A stretch of 62,747 bases of DNA, filler included, from Asterionella formosa (Eukaryota): assembly GCA_002256025.1 (NCBI GenBank). It is 21 parts of 21 records of this genome, joined end to end, with 100 filler letters (N's around TTAATTAATTAA, not from the genome) between each part and the next. Parts side by side here need not be neighbours in the genome. Positions count along the whole stretch, not along the records: positions 47,912 to 50,800 come from NKIB01014696.1; 20 more parts are not named here. One strand, written 5' to 3'. Each line of letters starts with the position of its first letter. Within the stretch, counting starts at the first letter, position 1. The position numbers and the translations under genes are program-made. This document shows positions 442 to 57,445 of this stretch, piece by piece. The notes beneath the pieces were generated by a model. That model searched no databases. It worked only from the letters and a program-made list of their open reading frames with translations, and was not told the DNA's origin.

Positions 442-638
442 GTGAGCAATCCTGCACATCGATGCAGATGTATTTAGGGTTAGGGTTATATCAAATATAT
501 CGGAAGTCAATAATGAGAGAACTCGACTAACACTCATTCTATACTTTGATGTCAGTTCAGGAAATGAGTTGTACATAAAGATTAATTAATAAACTCATAT
601 ATTCAACAAATACTACTACTTCTAGTTGGATACTTCAC
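442..638 (+). mobile_element. Gypsy 3' LTR, copy A (197 bp), preceded by a short purine tract
   Basis: Follows the pol stop and GGGAGA. Begins (G)TGAG and ends CTTCA(C). Homology to 1301-1497 and 50498-50689 stops at this end. Confidence 0.8.
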
Positions 639-1300: not shown

Positions 1301-1497
1301 GTGAGCAATCCTACATATCGATACAGATGTATATAGAGTTAGGGTTATATCAAATATATCGGAAGTCAATAATGAGAGAACTCGACTAACACCCATTCTA
1401 TACTTTGATGTCAGTTCAGGAAATGAGTTGTACATAAGGATTAATTAATAAGCTTATATATTCAACAAATACTACTACTTCTAGTTGGATACTTCAC
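1301..1497 (+). mobile_element. Gypsy 3' LTR, copy B (197 bp)
   Basis: Direct repeat of 442-638 with a few substitutions. Confidence 0.8.
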
Positions 1498-2658
1498 CAT
1501 TTACCGTGTATTCCGTAGAAAAATAAGCATCATCCCTCGTTCCTTTCCTCGCTGTTTAATTCCATTGATGATGACAAACGTGAATACCGTTACGACGTAG
1601 CTAATATGTAGGAGAAAATACATAGTAGTATACCTGTATTATGGTAGGCACTAGTCACTACATACCTACGATAGTGCCTGGTACCCTGGTACCATGTACC
1701 GGTAGTTACGTTCCTCGTAAACGCACGTCCCAGAGGGAGTACGACATGAGCAAGATACCATGTACATTATATGATTAGGGTTAAAATAGTCGATGTAAAT
1801 GCTTCTTATTTTTATACCGGTATTTGGAAAATGATCCAGCCATCATCATGCAAGGTTCTTTTTGCTGAGGCAGGCGGGGAGGATTTTAAAAACCAAAGTA
1901 CCGGTAATATACGTACCGGTAATATACCGGAATGCCGAAATGTATGATACGTGTAACAAGTAACGGTAGCTAGATGACAGTCACGAACAGTAAAAGGATT
2001 TTTACAACTGGCACGTTCGTATGTAATGAGTATGAACGGGTACCAGTACAATGGTATCATGGTACCCTGGCATTCGGGTACATATGTTATGTATTTAAGA
2101 ATGCCAGCGGGGGTGCCTGGTTTATCTGCCGTTTTAATGCCATCATTTTTATAGCTCACCATGGCATTATTACAATTTGAGCCCTCATTCATATGACTGC
2201 TGTAAGGTAATGGGGTGGCTGGTGGAGAAATGTGGTCATTTCCTTGGGCAGAAGCATTCATGATAATTAATTGTTTTGAGGTACAGTAGTACTGTTAGCT
2301 TGGTATTCTTGAGCAGTCACTCTCATCATGATATGTCTTGCACAGCTGGGTGATTCCCATTTTAACCCACACCAATATATCAACCTCTTTTCATAGGACT
2401 GGATTTTCGATCAAAAATTCTTCCAATTTTTGGCAAACTATTTGCTCGTATATCCCCAAAAGTATCAACTTTGATCCCATTTGATATTGATGCCTGATAG
2501 CTTTTCAAATACTTTATATATTTCTTGGTTTGCATCAATAAAAGGTTGCAAAAAGCAGGTGGAATTTCTTTTTACACCACTATCTTGCGGGTATCTGATA
2601 TACGTACCCATCCAAGATCCTGTGAGGTTTTTCCCACATCTAAGCCGCGAAATACGCC

Positions 2659-2902
2659 ACTTTTCGAAATTTCGTCTACGTATGAGTGTTAGTTATGTGG
2701 TACTTCACATGCATTAATGCCACTCTTCACGTGAAAAAGATTACTTTTAACGGTTTCATGTGAAGTTTTAACTGCTTCATGTGAAGTTTTCACAATGAAT
2801 TTTGAACGCGAGACTGAATTAGTTGATGTTTCAAATAATTCATTTGACTTTTCGAAATTTCGTTTACGTACGAGTGTTAATTATGTGGTACTTCACATGC
2901 AT
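2659..2902 (+). repeat. Direct repeat with 188-bp period, cut by the contig end
   Basis: ACTTTTCGAAATTTCGT..TATGTGGTACTTCACATGCAT at 2659-2714 and 2847-2902. Internal TTCATGTGAAGTTTT duplicated near 2755 and 2776. Confidence 0.8.
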
Positions 2903-6000: not shown

Positions 6001-8670
6001 GGTAAGTCAAGCTACCATACCGGTGGTAGCGATTCCGACTGTACAGATCACGACACAATACTAGCTACAGATGTTTGCGTACCAGACAGCACAGACACAA
6101 ACTCGCCCGACCGCCACCACGACACTCCGCGGCAATTTGCACGAATAGCCCCACTCCCCGCCAGCCCCACCATCGAACAACACACATCACGCCATACTTT
6201 GGAAAACGAGTTGCTCCGACACATCAATTGCATTCTAGATACTCCATCACCGCATATGAACACACCGACATTTCGTTTCGAATGGAGTACGGAGGCGGCA
6301 AACCACAACTGGGCGATACTAGTACAGTTCAACCTAGACATTACCAAGGCAATTGCGAGCCAGGCCAACTCCCCGCTCAGTATAGGTTCGGAATTCCGAG
6401 CATTACACCTACTGCGTCCTCTACTATCCTACCATCCGCTGTGGGGACGTTTCGTCACTCTCATCACGACTGGTGTAGAATTCCCGCTCAAACCTCTACC
6501 GGACGAGCAGAGGCTACACGACTTGGAGCTCGCCGTCGCGCGAGGCAACCACACATCGGCGAAACTTAAACATGAAATAGTTACGAAACTTCTAATCAAA
6601 GAAGTCGACAGAGGCTGGCAACTCCCACTCCCACCGGAAAATATCCGCCTACTACCACACGCTGTTGTAGCGCCGATAGGTCTAGTGACGCAAGCCACGA
6701 TCAACGCACACGGGGAAATAATACCCAAAGACCGGCTGACCCACGACCAATCATTCGAGTTCTCCCCAGGGACTTCAGTCAATGCACGTGTCATATTTGA
6801 CTCGCTGACACCGTGTAGATACGGCACCGCACTGAGACGATTTATTCACTACATAGTGGATCTAAGAAGAATCTATCCGGACACTCGAATTCTAATGACT
6901 AAATTAGATTTTAAAGCCGCGTATCGCCGCCTACATACATCGAGTCTCACAGCGTCACAGGCCGTAGTCATTATCGATGACATAGCGCTTCTCGCTTTAC
7001 GGATGACTTTCGGGGGGGCACCAAACCCAAGCATGTGGAGCGATGTCTCTGAACTAGCATGCGACACGTGCAATTTGTTATCACGTTGCGACCGATGGAA
7101 CTCGGAGTCCACGCCCACACTGGAATCCCCGCACCAACAAAAATACGTCACCATGCCAAAGTACCTCAACACTAGGTCAACTTGTGAACCAGCACAACCC
7201 ACGACAGTAGCGATCGACGCTGACCTAGCACCGTTTACTGAATGTTATCTAGACGATCTATTTACGTGTTTCTTGGATAATCCGACAGCTATATGGAAAG
7301 GTTCACGAATTACACTGCTTATGCTACATCTGTTGGGCAGACCTATAGCTGAATCCGAACCCCTACAACGTGAAGATCTACTCGCGTTCGAAAAAATGAC
7401 AGCAGAAGGCTCCCCAGAAGAATCCAAGATAATCTTAGGATGGGAGGTGAACACACGCACCCTTCGACTACGCCTCCCCCACGATAAACTCACGTCCTGG
7501 AATGCGGAAATTGACCGCATACTACAGTTGCCCACGGTTGATTGTGAAGTATTAGCGACCACGATCGGTCGACTGAACCATGCCTCGTATGTGATCCCAA
7601 CCGCTCGTGCCTTTCTATGCCATCTCCGACGTGCCGAACGGCGAGCAAGGGTCAGCGGAAAAAGAATTCCATTATCGGAATTACAAAAGGAAGAATTGCG
7701 GCAATGGCTCACCTTCTTACGTACCGCAAGCCAAGGAATCAGCCTAAACCGACTAACACTACGTGTTCCCACCATCCTCCTGCGTGCCGACGCCTGCCAA
7801 CACGGAATCGGAGGGTTCTCGCTCACATCGGGCCGAGCCTGGCGATTCGAAATTCCAACAGAATGTCGGGGACATCTGTCGCTGAACCTACTGGAGTACC
7901 TTGCATCCATCACCACCATTGCAACTGAAGCCGCAGTCGGTAACATCAGACCCGACGACTGCATTCTCTCCCAACTGGACAGCTCGACGGCGGATTATTG
8001 GCTTCACCGCGGTGGCGCACGGTTTCAAGGTCAAGAAAAATCGACCCATTTAGCAATCTCTCGCTGGCTAGCCGCGATCCTCGAGCAAACCCAGGCGTGT
8101 AGCTACAGCCAATGGATCCCAGGAGATGACAACGTGATAGCCGATGCCCTCTCTCGTGACCATCATCTATCAAATGCACAACTAACACACCTCATCCATC
8201 ACTCGGCCACCCACCAGATGCCCCCGAATTTCTCCATCTCGCCGCTCCCCACCGACATCGCCTCCAAGCTTACCTTATGGATGCAGATCGGGCGCGCTCC
8301 CAAGGACTTCAAGCTAACACCACGGCGAAGCTCAATCGCGTCTTCCGAATCTGGACCGAATTCCTTGCGTCCATTGGATTTTGTGATGTCACCGATCCAT
8401 TCCTCGCCAACCTCTCACCAGAACAACGCATTCGACTCATCGGAGCATTCGCGCATGCCGTCCGGCAGGCCGAGTTCAGTACACATCGAGACACTCCTCT
8501 GGCATCAGCGACAGTCCGGGACACCATCGCATCTCTATCGGCGACCTTTGTGGAGAACGACAGACCTGACCCCGCAACAAACATACACGGCAAGACTCAC
8601 CGAATTCTACGCCTCCAGTTCTCCGCTTATCGACATACCGATCCAGCCGTTAAACATCAACGAGCATTAA
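6001..8670 (+). CDS. DIRS/Ngaro-like retrotransposon RT-RNase H ORF (5'-partial)
   Basis: RT motifs RLTHDQS, KLDFKAAYRRL, MTFGGAPNP and CYLDD. RNase H motifs ADACQHGIGG, NLLEY, LDSSTA and WIPGDDNVIADALSR. Frame is open from the contig start. Confidence 0.9.
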   Translation, partial: GKSSYHTGGSDSDCTDHDTILATDVCVPDSTDTNSPDRHHDTPRQFARIAPLPASPTIEQHTSRHTLENELLRHINCILDTPSPHMNTPTFRFEWSTEAANHNWAILVQFNLDITKAIASQANSPLSIGSEFRALHLLRPLLSYHPLWGRFVTLITTGVEFPLKPLPDEQRLHDLELAVARGNHTSAKLKHEIVTKLLIKEVDRGWQLPLPPENIRLLPHAVVAPIGLVTQATINAHGEIIPKDRLTHDQSFEFSPGTSVNARVIFDSLTPCRYGTALRRFIHYIVDLRRIYPDTRILMTKLDFKAAYRRLHTSSLTASQAVVIIDDIALLALRMTFGGAPNPSMWSDVSELACDTCNLLSRCDRWNSESTPTLESPHQQKYVTMPKYLNTRSTCEPAQPTTVAIDADLAPFTECYLDDLFTCFLDNPTAIWKGSRITLLMLHLLGRPIAESEPLQREDLLAFEKMTAEGSPEESKIILGWEVNTRTLRLRLPHDKLTSWNAEIDRILQLPTVDCEVLATTIGRLNHASYVIPTARAFLCHLRRAERRARVSGKRIPLSELQKEELRQWLTFLRTASQGISLNRLTLRVPTILLRADACQHGIGGFSLTSGRAWRFEIPTECRGHLSLNLLEYLASITTIATEAAVGNIRPDDCILSQLDSSTADYWLHRGGARFQGQEKSTHLAISRWLAAILEQTQACSYSQWIPGDDNVIADALSRDHHLSNAQLTHLIHHSATHQMPPNFSISPLPTDIASKLTLWMQIGRAPKDFKLTPRRSSIASSESGPNSLRPLDFVMSPIHSSPTSHQNNAFDSSEHSRMPSGRPSSVHIETLLWHQRQSGTPSHLYRRPLWRTTDLTPQQTYTARLTEFYASSSPLIDIPIQPLNINEH

Positions 8671-47911: not shown

Positions 47912-50472
47912 AATTATTATCAAATGCTATCCCTTGTCATCAACGAGCATATCCTGTCGCTCATATTAATTTAGAAGTTTTCAAAACCGAATAACAACGG
48001 TTGTGTGATATTGGAGTCCTACAAAAATGTGGTGCTTTTAAATGGGCATCTCCCACTTTTATTATTCCAAAAAAGGATGGAAGTGTCCGATGGGTATCAG
48101 ATTTTCGTGAACTTAATAAAGTCATCAATCGCAATATATATCCTTTGCCTCGAATACAAACTATTCTCACTAAACGTGCTGGATATGTATTTTTCACCAA
48201 ATTGGATGTTACCATGCAATACTATACTTTTGCATTGGAGGTGGAGAGTCAAAACTTGTGTGTTATTTCAACTCCATTTGGTTTATATAAATATTTACGT
48301 CTCCCATGGGGGTGAAACAATCATCTGATATAGCACAAGAAACTATGGAAAAGATCCTTAGTGATTTAGATGATGTGGAAATTTATATTGATGATGTGGG
48401 TTGTTTTTCAATGAATTTTTCGGATCACATTCATTTATTGGATACTATTTTACATCGTTTACAGGCAAATGGTCTTACAATTAATCCATCTAAGTGTGAA
48501 TGGGCAGTCCAAGAGAAAGATTGGTTAGGCTATTGGTTAACTCCTAATGGACTGAAACCTTGGTCTAAAAAGGTCCAAGCATTGATTAATATGTCTTCAC
48601 CTACCAATCTTAAACAAGTCAGATCATTTCTTGGTGCTGTTACGTACTATCGAGACATGTTTCCTAGACAATCTCATGGGCTTGGACCGCTTACAGATTT
48701 AATCGGAACTAGTCCATTTGTCTGGTTGCCTATACATGAACAAGCTTTTGAAGAAATGAAAGCATTGTTGATTGCAGATACACTCATGCGTTATCCTGAT
48801 CATAATCTTCCTTTTAATATAGTTACTGATGCCTCTGATTATCAATTAGGATCGGTCATTATGCAAAATGATCTACCAGTTGCTTATTATTCTCGCAAAT
48901 TATCTGCTGCTCAAAAGAATTATACTACTATTGAGAAAGAATTACTTTCTGTGGTAGAAACTTTCAAAGAATTTCGCTCTATGTTATTGGGTGCAGTTCT
49001 ACATGTTCATATTGATCATCGAAATCTTATTTACAATACTTTACATACTCAACGTGTTCTAAGATGGAGACTTTATATTGAAGAATATCATCCTACTTTT
49101 CATCATGTGAAAGGGACTGACAATGCTATTGCAGATTCCATCTCTCGCCTCCCGAGGCTTGAGTCTTTGGTGGGGGATGATATTGGACCGAAATCTCCAG
49201 CATCAACATCCATTTCTACCTTTTCAATTGAATTAGATGATGAACTTTTGCCTACCTGCCAGTTTCCTTAATCATCCAATCTTGACAGACAATATTCAAT
49301 TTCCTCTGGACTATAATTTAATACATGATAGACAATTGCTGGATATACAATTGATTCTCAATCAACAAGCACATCCTTTAAAATTTCCTTCTATCAATTT
49401 TTATGACATATTTTTAATATGTTTTGTGAAGAATCCAGGAGATAGTTGGCGTATTGCTATTCCTACATCATTATTGGATCCTAATAATAATTGGTATCAT
49501 CAGATGCTAGCTCATGTGGGTATGACAAGATTAAATGCTACAATTGCTACACATTTTTATCACCCTACATTAAAAGCAAGAGTGGAACATATTGTAAGAG
49601 TATGTGAAGCATGTCAATGTACAAAATTACCTGGTACTGGCTTAGGTGAACTTCCACCCACCAGGAATGCATTATTATTGCCATGGTCAGAAGTTGCAGT
49701 CGATTTTATTGGTCCATGGAAGATAACAGTGGCAAATCAATTAATTGAATTTCGTGCTCTAACTTGTATTGATACGGTTACCAATTTGGCAGAAATTTCA
49801 TGTATCAATAACAAAACATCAGAATATATTGCAATGAAATTTGAAAATGATTGGTTAGCCAGACATCCATGTCCAGAACGTTGTATACATGAAAATGGAG
49901 GTGAATTTACTGGTGCTCCTTTCTTACACATGTTGGTGTTGAATGGAATTAAAGATGTGACTACTACTACAGTCAAGAATCCACAAGCAAATGGTGTCTG
50001 TGAACGTTTACATCAATCTATCCGTAATAGTCTACGAGCTATGTTAAAGGCTCATCCTCCAATGAATGAATTTGAAGCCCAAAATATTGTGGATACTTGT
50101 TTTGCAACTGCATCATATGCAGCTCGAACTACTATTCATAGTATATTATGTATTATTCCAGGTGCATGGGTTTTTCAACGTGATATGATTTTAAATATTC
50201 CTTTGCTTACAGATTTACAATTGATACATCAACGTTGACAAGTTATAATCGACAAACGCTTACGTCGCATTAATTTTTGTCGTCAATCTTATGATTACAA
50301 AGTGGGTGATGAGATTTTAATACTTTTGGATAATCCTACTACTTTGGATGATTGTGGACGAGGTCCTTATACTATTTTTCAAGTACATGCCAATGGTACA
50401 GTTACTTTTCAACGCACTATGCATATTACAGAACGAATTAATATTCGTCGTATCAAACCTTTTCATAGGTAA
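47912..50472 (+). pseudogene. Ty3/gypsy pol (RT, RNase H, integrase), frameshifted
   Basis: WASPTFIIPKKDG, DFRELNK, YIDDV, TDASDYQLG, YTTIEKELLS, HHCC zinc finger (H..H..CEACQ), VDFIGPW, NPQANGVCERLH. Frameshifts near 48310 and 49250; TGA at 50236. Confidence 0.93.
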
Positions 50473-50497
50473 ATGGTTTTCCCTCAAGTGTGGGAGA

Positions 50498-50689
50498 GTG
50501 AGCGATCCTGCACATTGATACAGAAATATATAGGGTTAGGGTTATATCAAATATATCAGAACTCGACTACCGGTATCGGTAACACCTGTTGTATATTTTG
50601 ATGTCAATTTGGGAAAACAAGTTGTACATAGATTAATTAGCATATATTCAACGAATACTAATACTTCTACCGGTAGTTAGATACTTCAC
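50498..50689 (+). mobile_element. Gypsy 3' LTR, diverged copy carrying CCGGTA insertions
   Basis: Homologous to 442-638, with insertions at 50570-50581 and 50670-50675. Confidence 0.8.
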
Positions 50690-50901
50690 CTGCTACCTGG
50701 TACCAGGGTACTGCTGTCATCACTTCATTGTCATACATGACACCGGTACCTGGTACCTGGTACGGGCTGATGCGTGATGACGAATTTTTACGATACCTGG
50801 NNNNNNNNNNNNNNNNNNNNNNNNNNNNNNNNNNNNNNNNNNNNTTAATTAATTAANNNNNNNNNNNNNNNNNNNNNNNNNNNNNNNNNNNNNNNNNNNN
50901 G

Positions 50902-53284
50902 GCTGCTTCTATAGTTACAGCAGGATCAACACAGGCCCAATCCCGAGTGTTGCAGAAGAGTGTTCCAAAGAAAGCTGCAAAGACGAGGATGAAGGCTCCT
51001 CCAAGAGCTGTTGCTGCAAAAGCTGTTGCACTCAAGCCTTCTGCCAAGGCTACTCCCAAGCATGATGCTACCAAAGCCATCACATCCAAGGCAGGTGCTT
51101 ACAACGCTGCGAAGTCAACAGCCAGGAGCCGAGATGTTGCATCAATGCCTGTAACTAATCCTCACGAAGAATCTGAATCGGACTGCAAACCAGCCGCGAT
51201 TCCCAGCAAAAAAGTATCGAAACCAGACTCTAAACCAGCTGCCATAAACAGGAAAAAAGTATCCAAACCGGATTCCAAATCAGCTGCCACCTCCAGCAAA
51301 TTGGTCTCCAAACCGGAGTCCCAACAAGTTGCTGTGCCAATAATCAAGAAACGATCGAAGGCTACCTGGTCCCCTTCTAGTTCTATTTCCAAGAAATCAC
51401 GAATTTCTTCCAAGGACAATGATGTGATTAGTCTAACAGATGATGATAGTAGTGAGTCAAAGGCAACTGCCTCAAAGAATGACCTCCTCCATTGTGTCAA
51501 TCCTGAACTACCTTCTGTTGCCAATTTCAACAAAAGTAACCAGAAGGTGATCAAGCTGGAACTCATCCTGTCCCACCATGGGATAAGGTCGAAACAATTT
51601 GACCTAGCAGGAACTCTTGCTTCACGCCGAGCAATCACCACTCAAAGGTTCAGCTCTCAAGGCAGTTTCAAGGGTGTCACTAACACAGCAAATATTTCAA
51701 GCTTGCTCTATCAGGCTGATGCAGCCTACCACCAATTTCGTCAGGAGTGCTTGCAGTATGCGGAACGAGTGTTGTACCCATCGTCAAATGAAGATTTGAC
51801 GAAAAATAATAGCAAGTCGCCTCTCACTGGGAACAAGGGTGTGGAAGAGAGTGCAAAGTGGACGCACAGTTTTCAATACCCTACTTTTGGCATTTCCAAC
51901 AGGTTTGACTCCAAGAGAATTGTTGATATTCAGGTCCTACTACCTGAACCACCTTTGACCAACATTAACAATGAGGGGCGTAAAAACATCGAGCAAGAAA
52001 CCTTGATTTCTTCCAAGGAAAAGAACTTTGTAAAGGCCAAAGAAGCTGTGGTCCCAACTCCACCAGCTTTGCTTAACAATTTTTCTAGTCCAGTCAAAAA
52101 TCCTGTCCACTTGAGATTTGACCGGAGCACCAAGAATTATGATTCAAATACTAATGATTGAGTTCTTGAATCAGCAGCTCAATCAGAGAAAAATGCGCGT
52201 AAGGAAAACAGTGGCAATGCCACTGTGGTTTTTGTTCATCGACCAGCACCTCCAGTATTAGACCCTGCCCTTAAACCTGTGGCCTTAACAAAGCACACCA
52301 CCAAGGCTAATCGACAAGGCAAAGACGAAGAAGATATTTCCATCGCCTCAGAGGATGCCTCAGATGCTGGTCCTTCTTTGGGAATTCTCAAGTATGTTGA
52401 AAAATCGAATATGAAGTTGCTTGGGATCAACTGCAAGGATCATAAGCAGGTCGAGAAGGGTCCACATCTTACCCTCCAGCGAGATAGGAACCCAGATGAA
52501 ACTTTAGGTGAAACCTGGTCTATCATCAAGCTCCCACATTCTATCTCCCTCCAGCAGGAATGTCCAACCTGGTCTGAAATCTGTGCCTCCAACCAAGCAT
52601 ATCACCAGTGTGATTCAGCATGCCACCAGAGTGATTCCGCAAGGCAAAGACGACGAAGATAGTTCCATTCTCTCAGAGGATGTTCCTTCTTTGGAATTTC
52701 TCAAGTCTGTTCAGAAATCAAGTGTGAAGGAGGTACCTGCGGTCGACAAGAAGGATGATGAGGTCACGAAGGATAGACTTCTTATTCTCCAGAAGGATCA
52801 TGTCAAACCGGTACCTAAACCTGTGCCTCCAACAAAGCACACCAACAAGCTGAATTCACAAAGCCAAGACGAAGATAGTTCCAATGTCTCCAAGGATGAT
52901 CCTTCTTTGGAATTTCTCAAATCTGTTGAAAAATCTGTCAAAAAAATCCAACCTACTGTCCCACCTTTCTTTGCAAAGAATGAAGTTAATGTTGCTCAAA
53001 AAGAAAAAGGTAATACGATGCCCAAAAAAGGCCTTCAAAAATATTCTATTCTCTCTGAGAATGTTTCCATCCCAGGAAAAGTTCTCATCCATGTCCCTGG
53101 GCCTGCCGATGGCGAGAATCTTTTACGTTCTCCATCTACAACCCCATCCTCCTCTGAAACCTCGTCTTCTGCTGTGTCCTCAACTAGTTGTGAAACCTCT
53201 ACTGGTGGTGAAAAATCGGATTCCAAGTTAGATGAGGAGGACAAGTCCAAAGTGATTGATTCTGACTGTGAATCTGCATTGTGA
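50902..53284 (+). pseudogene. Partner ORF, copy 3 (longer N-terminal part visible; disrupted)
   Basis: Continuous with the copy 1/2 protein from SPLTGNKGV. TGA at 52159 (TCA in copy 2) and a 2-nt deletion near 52560. Confidence 0.75.
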
Positions 53285-56456: not shown

Positions 56457-56982
56457 GGGGTTTGTTGGTCAAATCTCTTCAAATTGTCGCTGTTGGTTCC
56501 TTGATTGGTGGCTGCGGCCTTAAGCTGCGCTACTCGAATCTATAGAATGTAAATTCCGCGATTGAGATGTCGAAACTCCAGCCTTCCATGTGAGTCTCAA
56601 AACGGCTGGTTCCTTTTATTTTAATGTTTTTATTTTATTTTATTTTTATCTCGAAACAATGTTGTTTCAACTACCGTAATCGACCGTATCGCAGGCCTTG
56701 AACCTTGTACTGTGTCAATCGAATACAGTTGATGAAATTAATAGTAACGAAGAAGTCGTCAACTTAAACTTTCACTTNNNNNNNNNNNNNNNNNNNNNNN
56801 NNNNNNNNNNNNNNNNNNNNNTTAATTAATTAANNNNNNNNNNNNNNNNNNNNNNNNNNNNNNNNNNNNNNNNNNNNTGACACCAGTTACCTCCTGGGCA
56901 TGCAATGACGTGTGGCACCGAATCCAGGTCAATGTTTAGTGATATATTTGTTTGGTTTCACCTCCCATGTATTCGAGGGGAC

Positions 56983-57278
56983 TGAACGAATATTGCAGTG
57001 CAGTGTGGGCGCATGGGTGCTCGTACCATGTCATATGGTACAGTGTACTCGAATAAATACGCTAGTGTGGTCAGCAGAACAACTTACATGGTGCACAAGG
57101 AAAGAAAGATAAAGGTTGAAAAGATAGACTTAAAGATACATATACCTACTCCGCATTCTCTGCTCCAAGCTTGCACGCTGTACTATCGCGAAAGCACTCT
57201 AACGGCTAGTTAGTACCCTGAACTGTATGACACGGTACGCTCACCCACGCGCCCATACTGCACTGCAATATTCGTTCA
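56983..57278 (-). mobile_element. Putative CoDi 3' LTR (296 bp) with about 67-bp imperfect terminal inverted repeats
   Basis: On the minus strand it follows GAGGGGAC (purine tract), begins TGAACGAATATTGCAGTGCAGT and ends ACTGCACTGCAATATTCGTTCA. Confidence 0.6.
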
Positions 57279-57445
57279 GTCCCCTCGAATACATGGGAGG
57301 TGAAACCAAACAAATATATCACTAAACATTGACCTGGATTCGGTGCCACACGTCATTGCATGCCCAGGAGGTAACTGGTGTCATAGGTTGTGACATCGCG
57401 ATGAACCTTGGCTTCAATCTTCGACCCACTGTGATCCAACAGCCA

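Follow-up and report, generated by a model that had tools for sequence, protein, structure and literature searches.

TA-CCGG-TA insertions in a diatom gypsy LTR as probable excision scars of pogo-type transposons

Introduction

How does the dinucleotide TA become TA-CCGG-TA, and do so twice within a single LTR? The question is raised by a gypsy-type retrotransposon in a stretch of 62,747 nucleotides from Asterionella formosa (the window), which strings together 21 unrelated contigs, each about 2.9 kb long and set off by spacers, from a eukaryotic assembly of 68.4 Mb in 15,436 contigs. Footprints of transposon excision are usually regarded as rare and ragged. An earlier note on this DNA read the inserted letters as excision scars of an element with CC...GG termini.

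I propose that pogo-type DNA transposons ending in CCGT...ACGG leave TA-CCGG-TA behind when they excise, and put the probability of this reading at about 0.84. The chemistry is textbook. It is the uniformity and the scale that are unusual, and a probable source can now be named.

Two recent insertions in one LTR

The LTR in question closes the element of contig 17 (Table 1). Complete copies of this retrotransposon measure about 5.1 kb. An exact CCWGG starts 25 of the 36 distinct 3' flanks, usually with TA next, and identical CCWGG duplications bound five of the seven full elements. At two loci (L005, L026) gypsy elements have inserted tail to tail within one CCWGG-TA array. The LTR also holds two TTAGGG units (window 50532-50544), which I take to be telomere-like.

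Table 1. Features of the window that bear on the insertions and their candidate sources
Feature	Position	Strand	Remarks
3' LTR hosting the scars, TG...CA, 190 bp	50499..50688	+	end of gypsy-type retrotransposon
Purine-rich tract immediately 5' of the 3' LTR	50486..50498	+	
Broken pol, several frames	47995..50472	+	RT, RNase H, integrase zinc-finger: gypsy order
Target-side flank: CCTGC, then CCWGG-TA array remnant	50689..50707	+	CCWGG is the insertion target of the gypsy family
Site 1, stacked scars TA-CCGG-TA-TCGG-TA	50568..50581	+	LTR alignment, L003, run contigs, genome-wide pattern counts
Site 2, single scar TA-CCGG-TA	50668..50675	+	missing from same-flank copy L003 and run X9 contig
Contig-1 LTR copy, sites 1 and 2 empty	443..637	+	
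Second contig-1 LTR copy, sites 1 and 2 empty	1302..1496	+	
Contig-18 3-bp gain TA-C-TA	51937..51943	+	class XY-(C/G/GC)-XY
End of Plavaka-associated element, CATC terminus	2637..2902	+	candidate source of second scar class

The letters of contig 17 are as the earlier note gave them, and both LTRs of contig 1 are indeed empty at both sites. The direction of change is settled by the alignment of LTR copies, where site 1 is empty in 29 of 34 and CCGG occurs at site 2 only in the contig-17 locus. Genome-wide, the empty pattern of site 1 has 609 matches (control, 16) against 16 of the filled pattern: 12 scarred LTRs, three instances outside the LTR site and one that is ambiguous, with no intact element at site 1 among the 16. 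The family state is therefore empty, and CCGGTA was gained rather than lost in contig 1. Both changes from TA to TACCGGTA are confirmed as derived; each took place at a single TA and left TA on both sides.

The order of events can be read from a second copy, L003, which shares the downstream flank of contig 17 and differs from it by 15 substitutions over 1068 columns. L003 carries TA-TCGG-TA alone at site 1 and an empty site 2, so the two TACCGG units are recent in contig 17: the TCGG unit is the older, and the CCGG unit joined it at its left TA. TCGG fails as a footprint in its own right (seven instances against 5.0 expected, no excess) and is therefore read as what it probably is, CCGG with C changed to T. 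An ancestral double scar might instead have contracted in L003, a less parsimonious course, for run X9 appears to have the same single form; an X9 contig over 50574-50800 lacks the six bases of site 2 and otherwise has no differing letter. The two newest gains share a haplotype and are separated by 100 bp, a spacing that would fit local hopping. The letters of contig 17 recur in a second contig, identical over 1064 bases, although the same reads may underlie both. In run X1, one Logan contig runs across site 1 with no differences at a depth of 882; none of the listed X1 pieces spans site 2.

On a tree of 54 LTRs, built with the scars removed beforehand, the scar at site 1 needs five changes, at least three of them forced by well-supported branches (the scar pattern itself had served to retrieve four of the eight scarred rows, which biases frequencies there). 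Scars arise, then, at single TAs, repeatedly and independently. One gypsy element bears the same scar in both of its LTRs, so reverse transcription can copy scars, and another LTR copy has an intact scar beside one decayed at CpG. At one locus (L263; G000:C497:12642) only the final 17 bases of an LTR are present, and a TA-CCGG-TA scar links them to unrelated DNA, a junction that may mark a transposon-driven rearrangement.

Abundance and specificity

The insertion is not peculiar to this LTR. The word TACCGGTA has 28,528 exact sites in the genome, against 1,718 for a reversed-word control, and TA-CCGG-TA occurs 19 times in the window (38 when both strands are counted, against 0.6 expected). The density is about 0.4 per kb, or roughly 0.7% of all TA sites. 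Small CCGG insertions proved specific to TA, as the earlier reading required: XY-CCGG-XY is enriched when XY is TA (200 vs 4.7), the other 15 dinucleotides being near expectation. Gains occur also at isolated TAs within pogo elements, Plavaka elements and tandem repeats. The form accounts for 16 of 54 clean 6-bp indels over all loci, a count in which events are incompletely de-duplicated and loci were partly picked by scar patterns.

A contiguous sample of 212 kb in two contigs holds 85 sites. The commonest one-letter variants there are those produced by decay at CpG (46 vs 8.4). The cores CCG and CGG, which resemble those of Sleeping Beauty, are enriched only twofold and lack the flank signature described below. 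CCWGG-TA arrays are as common in this sample as the CCGG scar (96 vs 85), with a different flank profile. TA-CCWGG-TA was considered as a de novo scar and rejected: both 7-bp changes found are unit changes within existing arrays, and the flanks are without the pogo signature.

The resident pogo elements

TA-duplicating elements with CC...GG ends, which the earlier note had inferred, do exist in this genome. The genome has 93 DDE_1 matches. Families B and C are bounded by TA|CCGT...ACGG|TA, family A by TA|CAGT. Among 100 ends of families B and C, 95 are flanked by TA, 95 start CCGT and four carry an extra C; the terminal inverted repeats (TIRs) are imperfect and about 26 bp long. Empty paralogous sites of pogo insertions show a single TA. 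The CCGT pogos thus insert at TA and duplicate it. Copies of family B are 99-100% identical in different flanks, and one has an open frame of 421 codons (DDE_1, E=1e-21) with the triad D188/D306/D342, that is, DD35D. DDE_1 with a DDxD triad, short TIRs and TA duplication place the elements in the pogo superfamily. The exact ends of family-C type number 325, with 114-359 candidates by other counts, all lower bounds. The expectation of a pogo or DD34D/E transposase is borne out in its first half, by the DD35D pogo; no DD34D/E enzyme came to light, in searches with DDE_3, where controls worked, and with a Transposase_1 profile, whose search of the genome gave no match and whose positive control was silent. 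A Transposase_21 profile search gave no match either, its control not working, and among solved structures none matches the pogo transposase.

Two other elements deserve mention. One (L257; G000:C5371, about 6690-7590) is unclassified, with TCGG...CCGA-like ends, no clear duplication and one copy in an LTR. The other, of 1.16 kb at G000:C12180:10536-11692, has TTAA flanks and GG...CC inverted ends and is presumably Kolobok-like.

What ties the scars to these elements? First, the scar core is what their terminal bases would give, CCG and CGG overlapping in CCGG. Second, scar sites share the target preference of the element. The flanks of 326 scar halves, two halves of one scar not being independent, are compatible with those of 95 pogo insertions (homogeneity chi2 30, df 24, p=0.18; r=0.65), while local TAs (chi2 120, df 24) and Plavaka flanks (p=7e-9) are rejected as matches. 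Scar and pogo flanks alike are poor in G and rich in T at +3, rich in T at +7 and rich in G at +1. On the pogo matrix CCGG scars score z=6.1, CCWGG -1.1 and TAGCTA -0.2. The same matrix gives TATA z=4.4, scars score z=3.25 on a Plavaka matrix, and replication in 57 independent ends is weaker (z=2.2 vs 5.4). The match may be generic to TA-targeting transposases, and I regard the flank test as suggestive and non-exclusive.

Third, one and the same TA of the LTR is empty, occupied by a pogo or scarred, depending on the copy. At this third LTR TA there are nine pattern matches, six of them scars and three element-type junctions; the two junctions inspected are confirmed pogo ends. A fourth occupied copy lies in a metagenome contig. 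By chance one would expect about 0.02-0.07 occupied copies. Flanks differ among the copies, so the states are paralogous, and no orthologous pair of an occupied and a scarred site was found at this TA or among 105 flanks. Site 1 has 12 scarred copies and no occupied one. Fourth, at two loci (L215, L275) a scar has a pogo end seated immediately on its TA. Finally, related pogos at 77 metagenome loci, many of them with CCGTA ends, are accompanied by TACCGGTA 10 times against 0.9 expected; at the same loci 10 of 11 control palindromes are near expectation and one occurs six times against 1.4. For the pogo family that ends in CAGT, no corresponding scar is in excess.

The suggestion of excision scars from a CC...GG element is thus supported by flanks and by the shared LTR TA, with the amendment that the exact ends are CCGT...ACGG. 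The DD35D pogo with TA|CCGT...ACGG|TA ends is the probable source. Excision itself would be the step that connects occupied and scarred states, which are known from different copies only.

A model of scar formation

In the model I favor, excision would leave a 3-nt overhang on each donor end, CCG on one and CGG on the other. These could anneal through the self-complementary CG, and fill-in and ligation would then yield TA-CCGG-TA. Pairing through CG may be the reason why one core dominates over the Sleeping Beauty-like CCG and CGG. Ligation of two 2-nt overhangs, CC and GG, would give identical letters. The two versions can be set against the elements with an extra terminal C: four ends in 100 predict about 8% of scars with CCCGG or CCGGG, and the 23 of 208 observed, whose flanks tend the same way (z=2.2), favor 3-nt overhangs.

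The model would also account for stacking. Each scar offers two TAs for renewed insertion, which may produce stacked scars such as that of site 1, and a pogo seated on the TA of a scar, as at L215 and L275, would be the expected intermediate. Old scars would decay, chiefly at CpG.

A second class of small insertion

The earlier note had set beside these sites a similar change between contigs 18 and 7. That change is real, but it is TA-C-TA and belongs outside the CCGG class. In gypsy alignments (138 kb) insertions are most frequent at lengths of 3 and 4 bp, and the core between any duplicated dinucleotide is C or G in all 32 unambiguous 3-bp gains and GC in 8 of 13 4-bp gains. Over all loci, XY-C/G-XY makes up 156 of 229 clean 3-bp indels and XY-GC-XY 55 of 104 clean 4-bp indels; the three stereotyped forms together are 227 of 633 clean indels, events being incompletely de-duplicated. 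The XY-(C/G/GC)-XY class is commoner than the CCGG class. The two also differ in where they fall: gypsy interiors have 80 gains of 3 or 4 bp flanked by duplications but neither CCGG scars (0 in 129 kb) nor pogo ends (0 of 101), an avoidance in common that speaks for a pogo origin of the CCGG class, and LTRs show the opposite tendency (Fisher p=2e-4, the LTR side being partly ascertained).

The candidate source is a Plavaka-associated element with CATC termini, a 13-bp TIR and several hundred ends, which in one case, read from two contigs (L103:5815; L368:222), made a 2-bp duplication in a gypsy LTR. A hairpin intermediate would put G in place of its terminal C. The match is incomplete. TA makes up a similar share of Plavaka ends (30 of 68) and second-class scars (23 of 55), with a background of 8%; dinucleotides of GA/AC type flank 10 of the 55 scars and none of the 68 ends.

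Some observations stand apart. Contigs 6/7 and 13/14 of the window match each other as reverse complements, at 99.2% and 99.5% identity and with no indels, and are probably alternative haplotypes; contigs 6/7 overlap Plavaka loci. A 172-bp inverted repeat at 56878-57383 adjoins a pol remnant that I take to be copia-like.

Alternative origins

The alternative that survives best, though an improbable one, is that the source is another TA-targeting element, perhaps a divergent Tc1/mariner or one whose ends literally read CCGG, and that the CCGT pogos share only its taste in targets. It draws on numbers: some 27,000 scars outnumber the few hundred known element ends about 50-100 to 1, so very many hops are required of the pogos. 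The searches leave it some room, those for families giving lower bounds and the terminal-repeat screen covering about 0.6% of the genome. Yet none of 16 candidates matched DDE_3, with controls working. The screen of TA-bounded inverted repeats gave no CCGG-ended element, the sole candidate, of 112 bp, being a tandem repeat that holds two scars. Nested insertions in 50 gypsy and 30 pogo loci also revealed no source element. And it is CCGT pogos that occupy the same LTR TA.

Half as credible, to my mind, is a process without a transposon, in which slippage or error-prone repair copies CCGGTA into TAs from nearby GGTACC-rich tracts. Scars do cluster, with 20% of gaps in the 212-kb sample under 100 bp (7% expected), CCWGG-TA arrays adjoin LTR ends, and slippage could expand stacked units. 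But the inserted word is fixed and differs from the neighboring CCWGG unit, lone TAs inside pogo, Plavaka and tandem repeats have gained it too, and a pogo flank signature is not what copying predicts.

Slightly less likely again is that TACCGGTA is a selected protein-binding promoter motif, as proposed for Phytophthora. Most sites (73 of the 85) do lie outside long open frames, and PMC3597505 counts the identical 8-mer among promoter motifs. It is too much to ask of selection, however, that it supply the letters, which arrive as a clean 6-bp gain in one step, dead repeats included. Later use of scars as binding sites is possible. As for an artefact, the evidence comes from contigs of a fragmented short-read assembly, but the deep X1 contig over site 1, variants mutationally decayed mostly at CpG, an element with the scar in both LTRs and the avoidance of open frames make it a very poor bet.

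Comparison with known systems

If the scars come from CCGT pogos, their formation has good precedents. Transposases of this type, as described in passages of bioRxiv 10.1101/659086, cut the two strands in a staggered way, so that a few terminal bases stay behind with a TA on either side, and the Tc1 footprint taCATGta is cited in a passage of PMC3520976. In the excerpts available, Sleeping Beauty and Tc1 likewise duplicate TA round a few terminal bases, through staggered cuts and end joining. Sleeping Beauty leaves 3-bp cores in two alternatives, CAG and CTG, whereas here a single palindromic 4-bp core dominates, and the scars form a genome-wide fossil record. In rice, according to a passage of PMC4423477, clean excisions are rare (8 of 94), which makes a uniform CCGG scar unusual.

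By its described features the source pogo resembles Passer, a DD35D pogo reported from nine stramenopiles (PMC9976928, PMC7386202, in part): each has a single ORF of about 420 aa and short TIRs, and each duplicates TA. Fot-like identity is possible. Passer footprints are given as 0-4 bp (PMC9976928, section 19), and the passages seen of the two papers describe no genome-wide scar load like that found here. PlavakaB of the CMCT clade, described from fungi, has CATC termini and a 2-bp duplication, as does the second-class candidate only; the word footprint is absent from PMC12730594, and the CCGG class does not fit Plavaka flanks. In the literature searched, mostly openly available main text, I found no report of excision footprints in diatoms.

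The same palindromes are known from another stramenopile. The motifs TACATGTA and TACCGGTA abound upstream of genes in Phytophthora, where, in the passages seen of PMC3520976 and PMC3597505, they are taken as transcription-factor sites and a footprint origin is dismissed because of their abundance and conservation.

Implications

A large part of the small indels consists of stereotyped scars, which would make transposon hopping a main source of indels in this genome. One may go further, tentatively, to a view that I think more likely wrong than right as a whole: that most small insertions are the work of two transposons, each in its own complementary compartment, CCGT pogos hopping repeatedly in promoter-like DNA and, through overhangs that self-anneal, leaving one fixed CpG-bearing palindrome tens of thousands of times, and Plavaka leaving hairpin-type (complemented) scars in silent transposon bodies, so that scars would be a fossil map of chromatin accessibility and the oomycete motifs would have the same origin. 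In any event, a warning is in order that palindromes in excess in the promoters of stramenopiles may be scars. The young pogo with its intact frame makes the claim of a source directly testable. Past hops could be counted long after the elements themselves have gone, and each would have supplied new CpG sites near genes.
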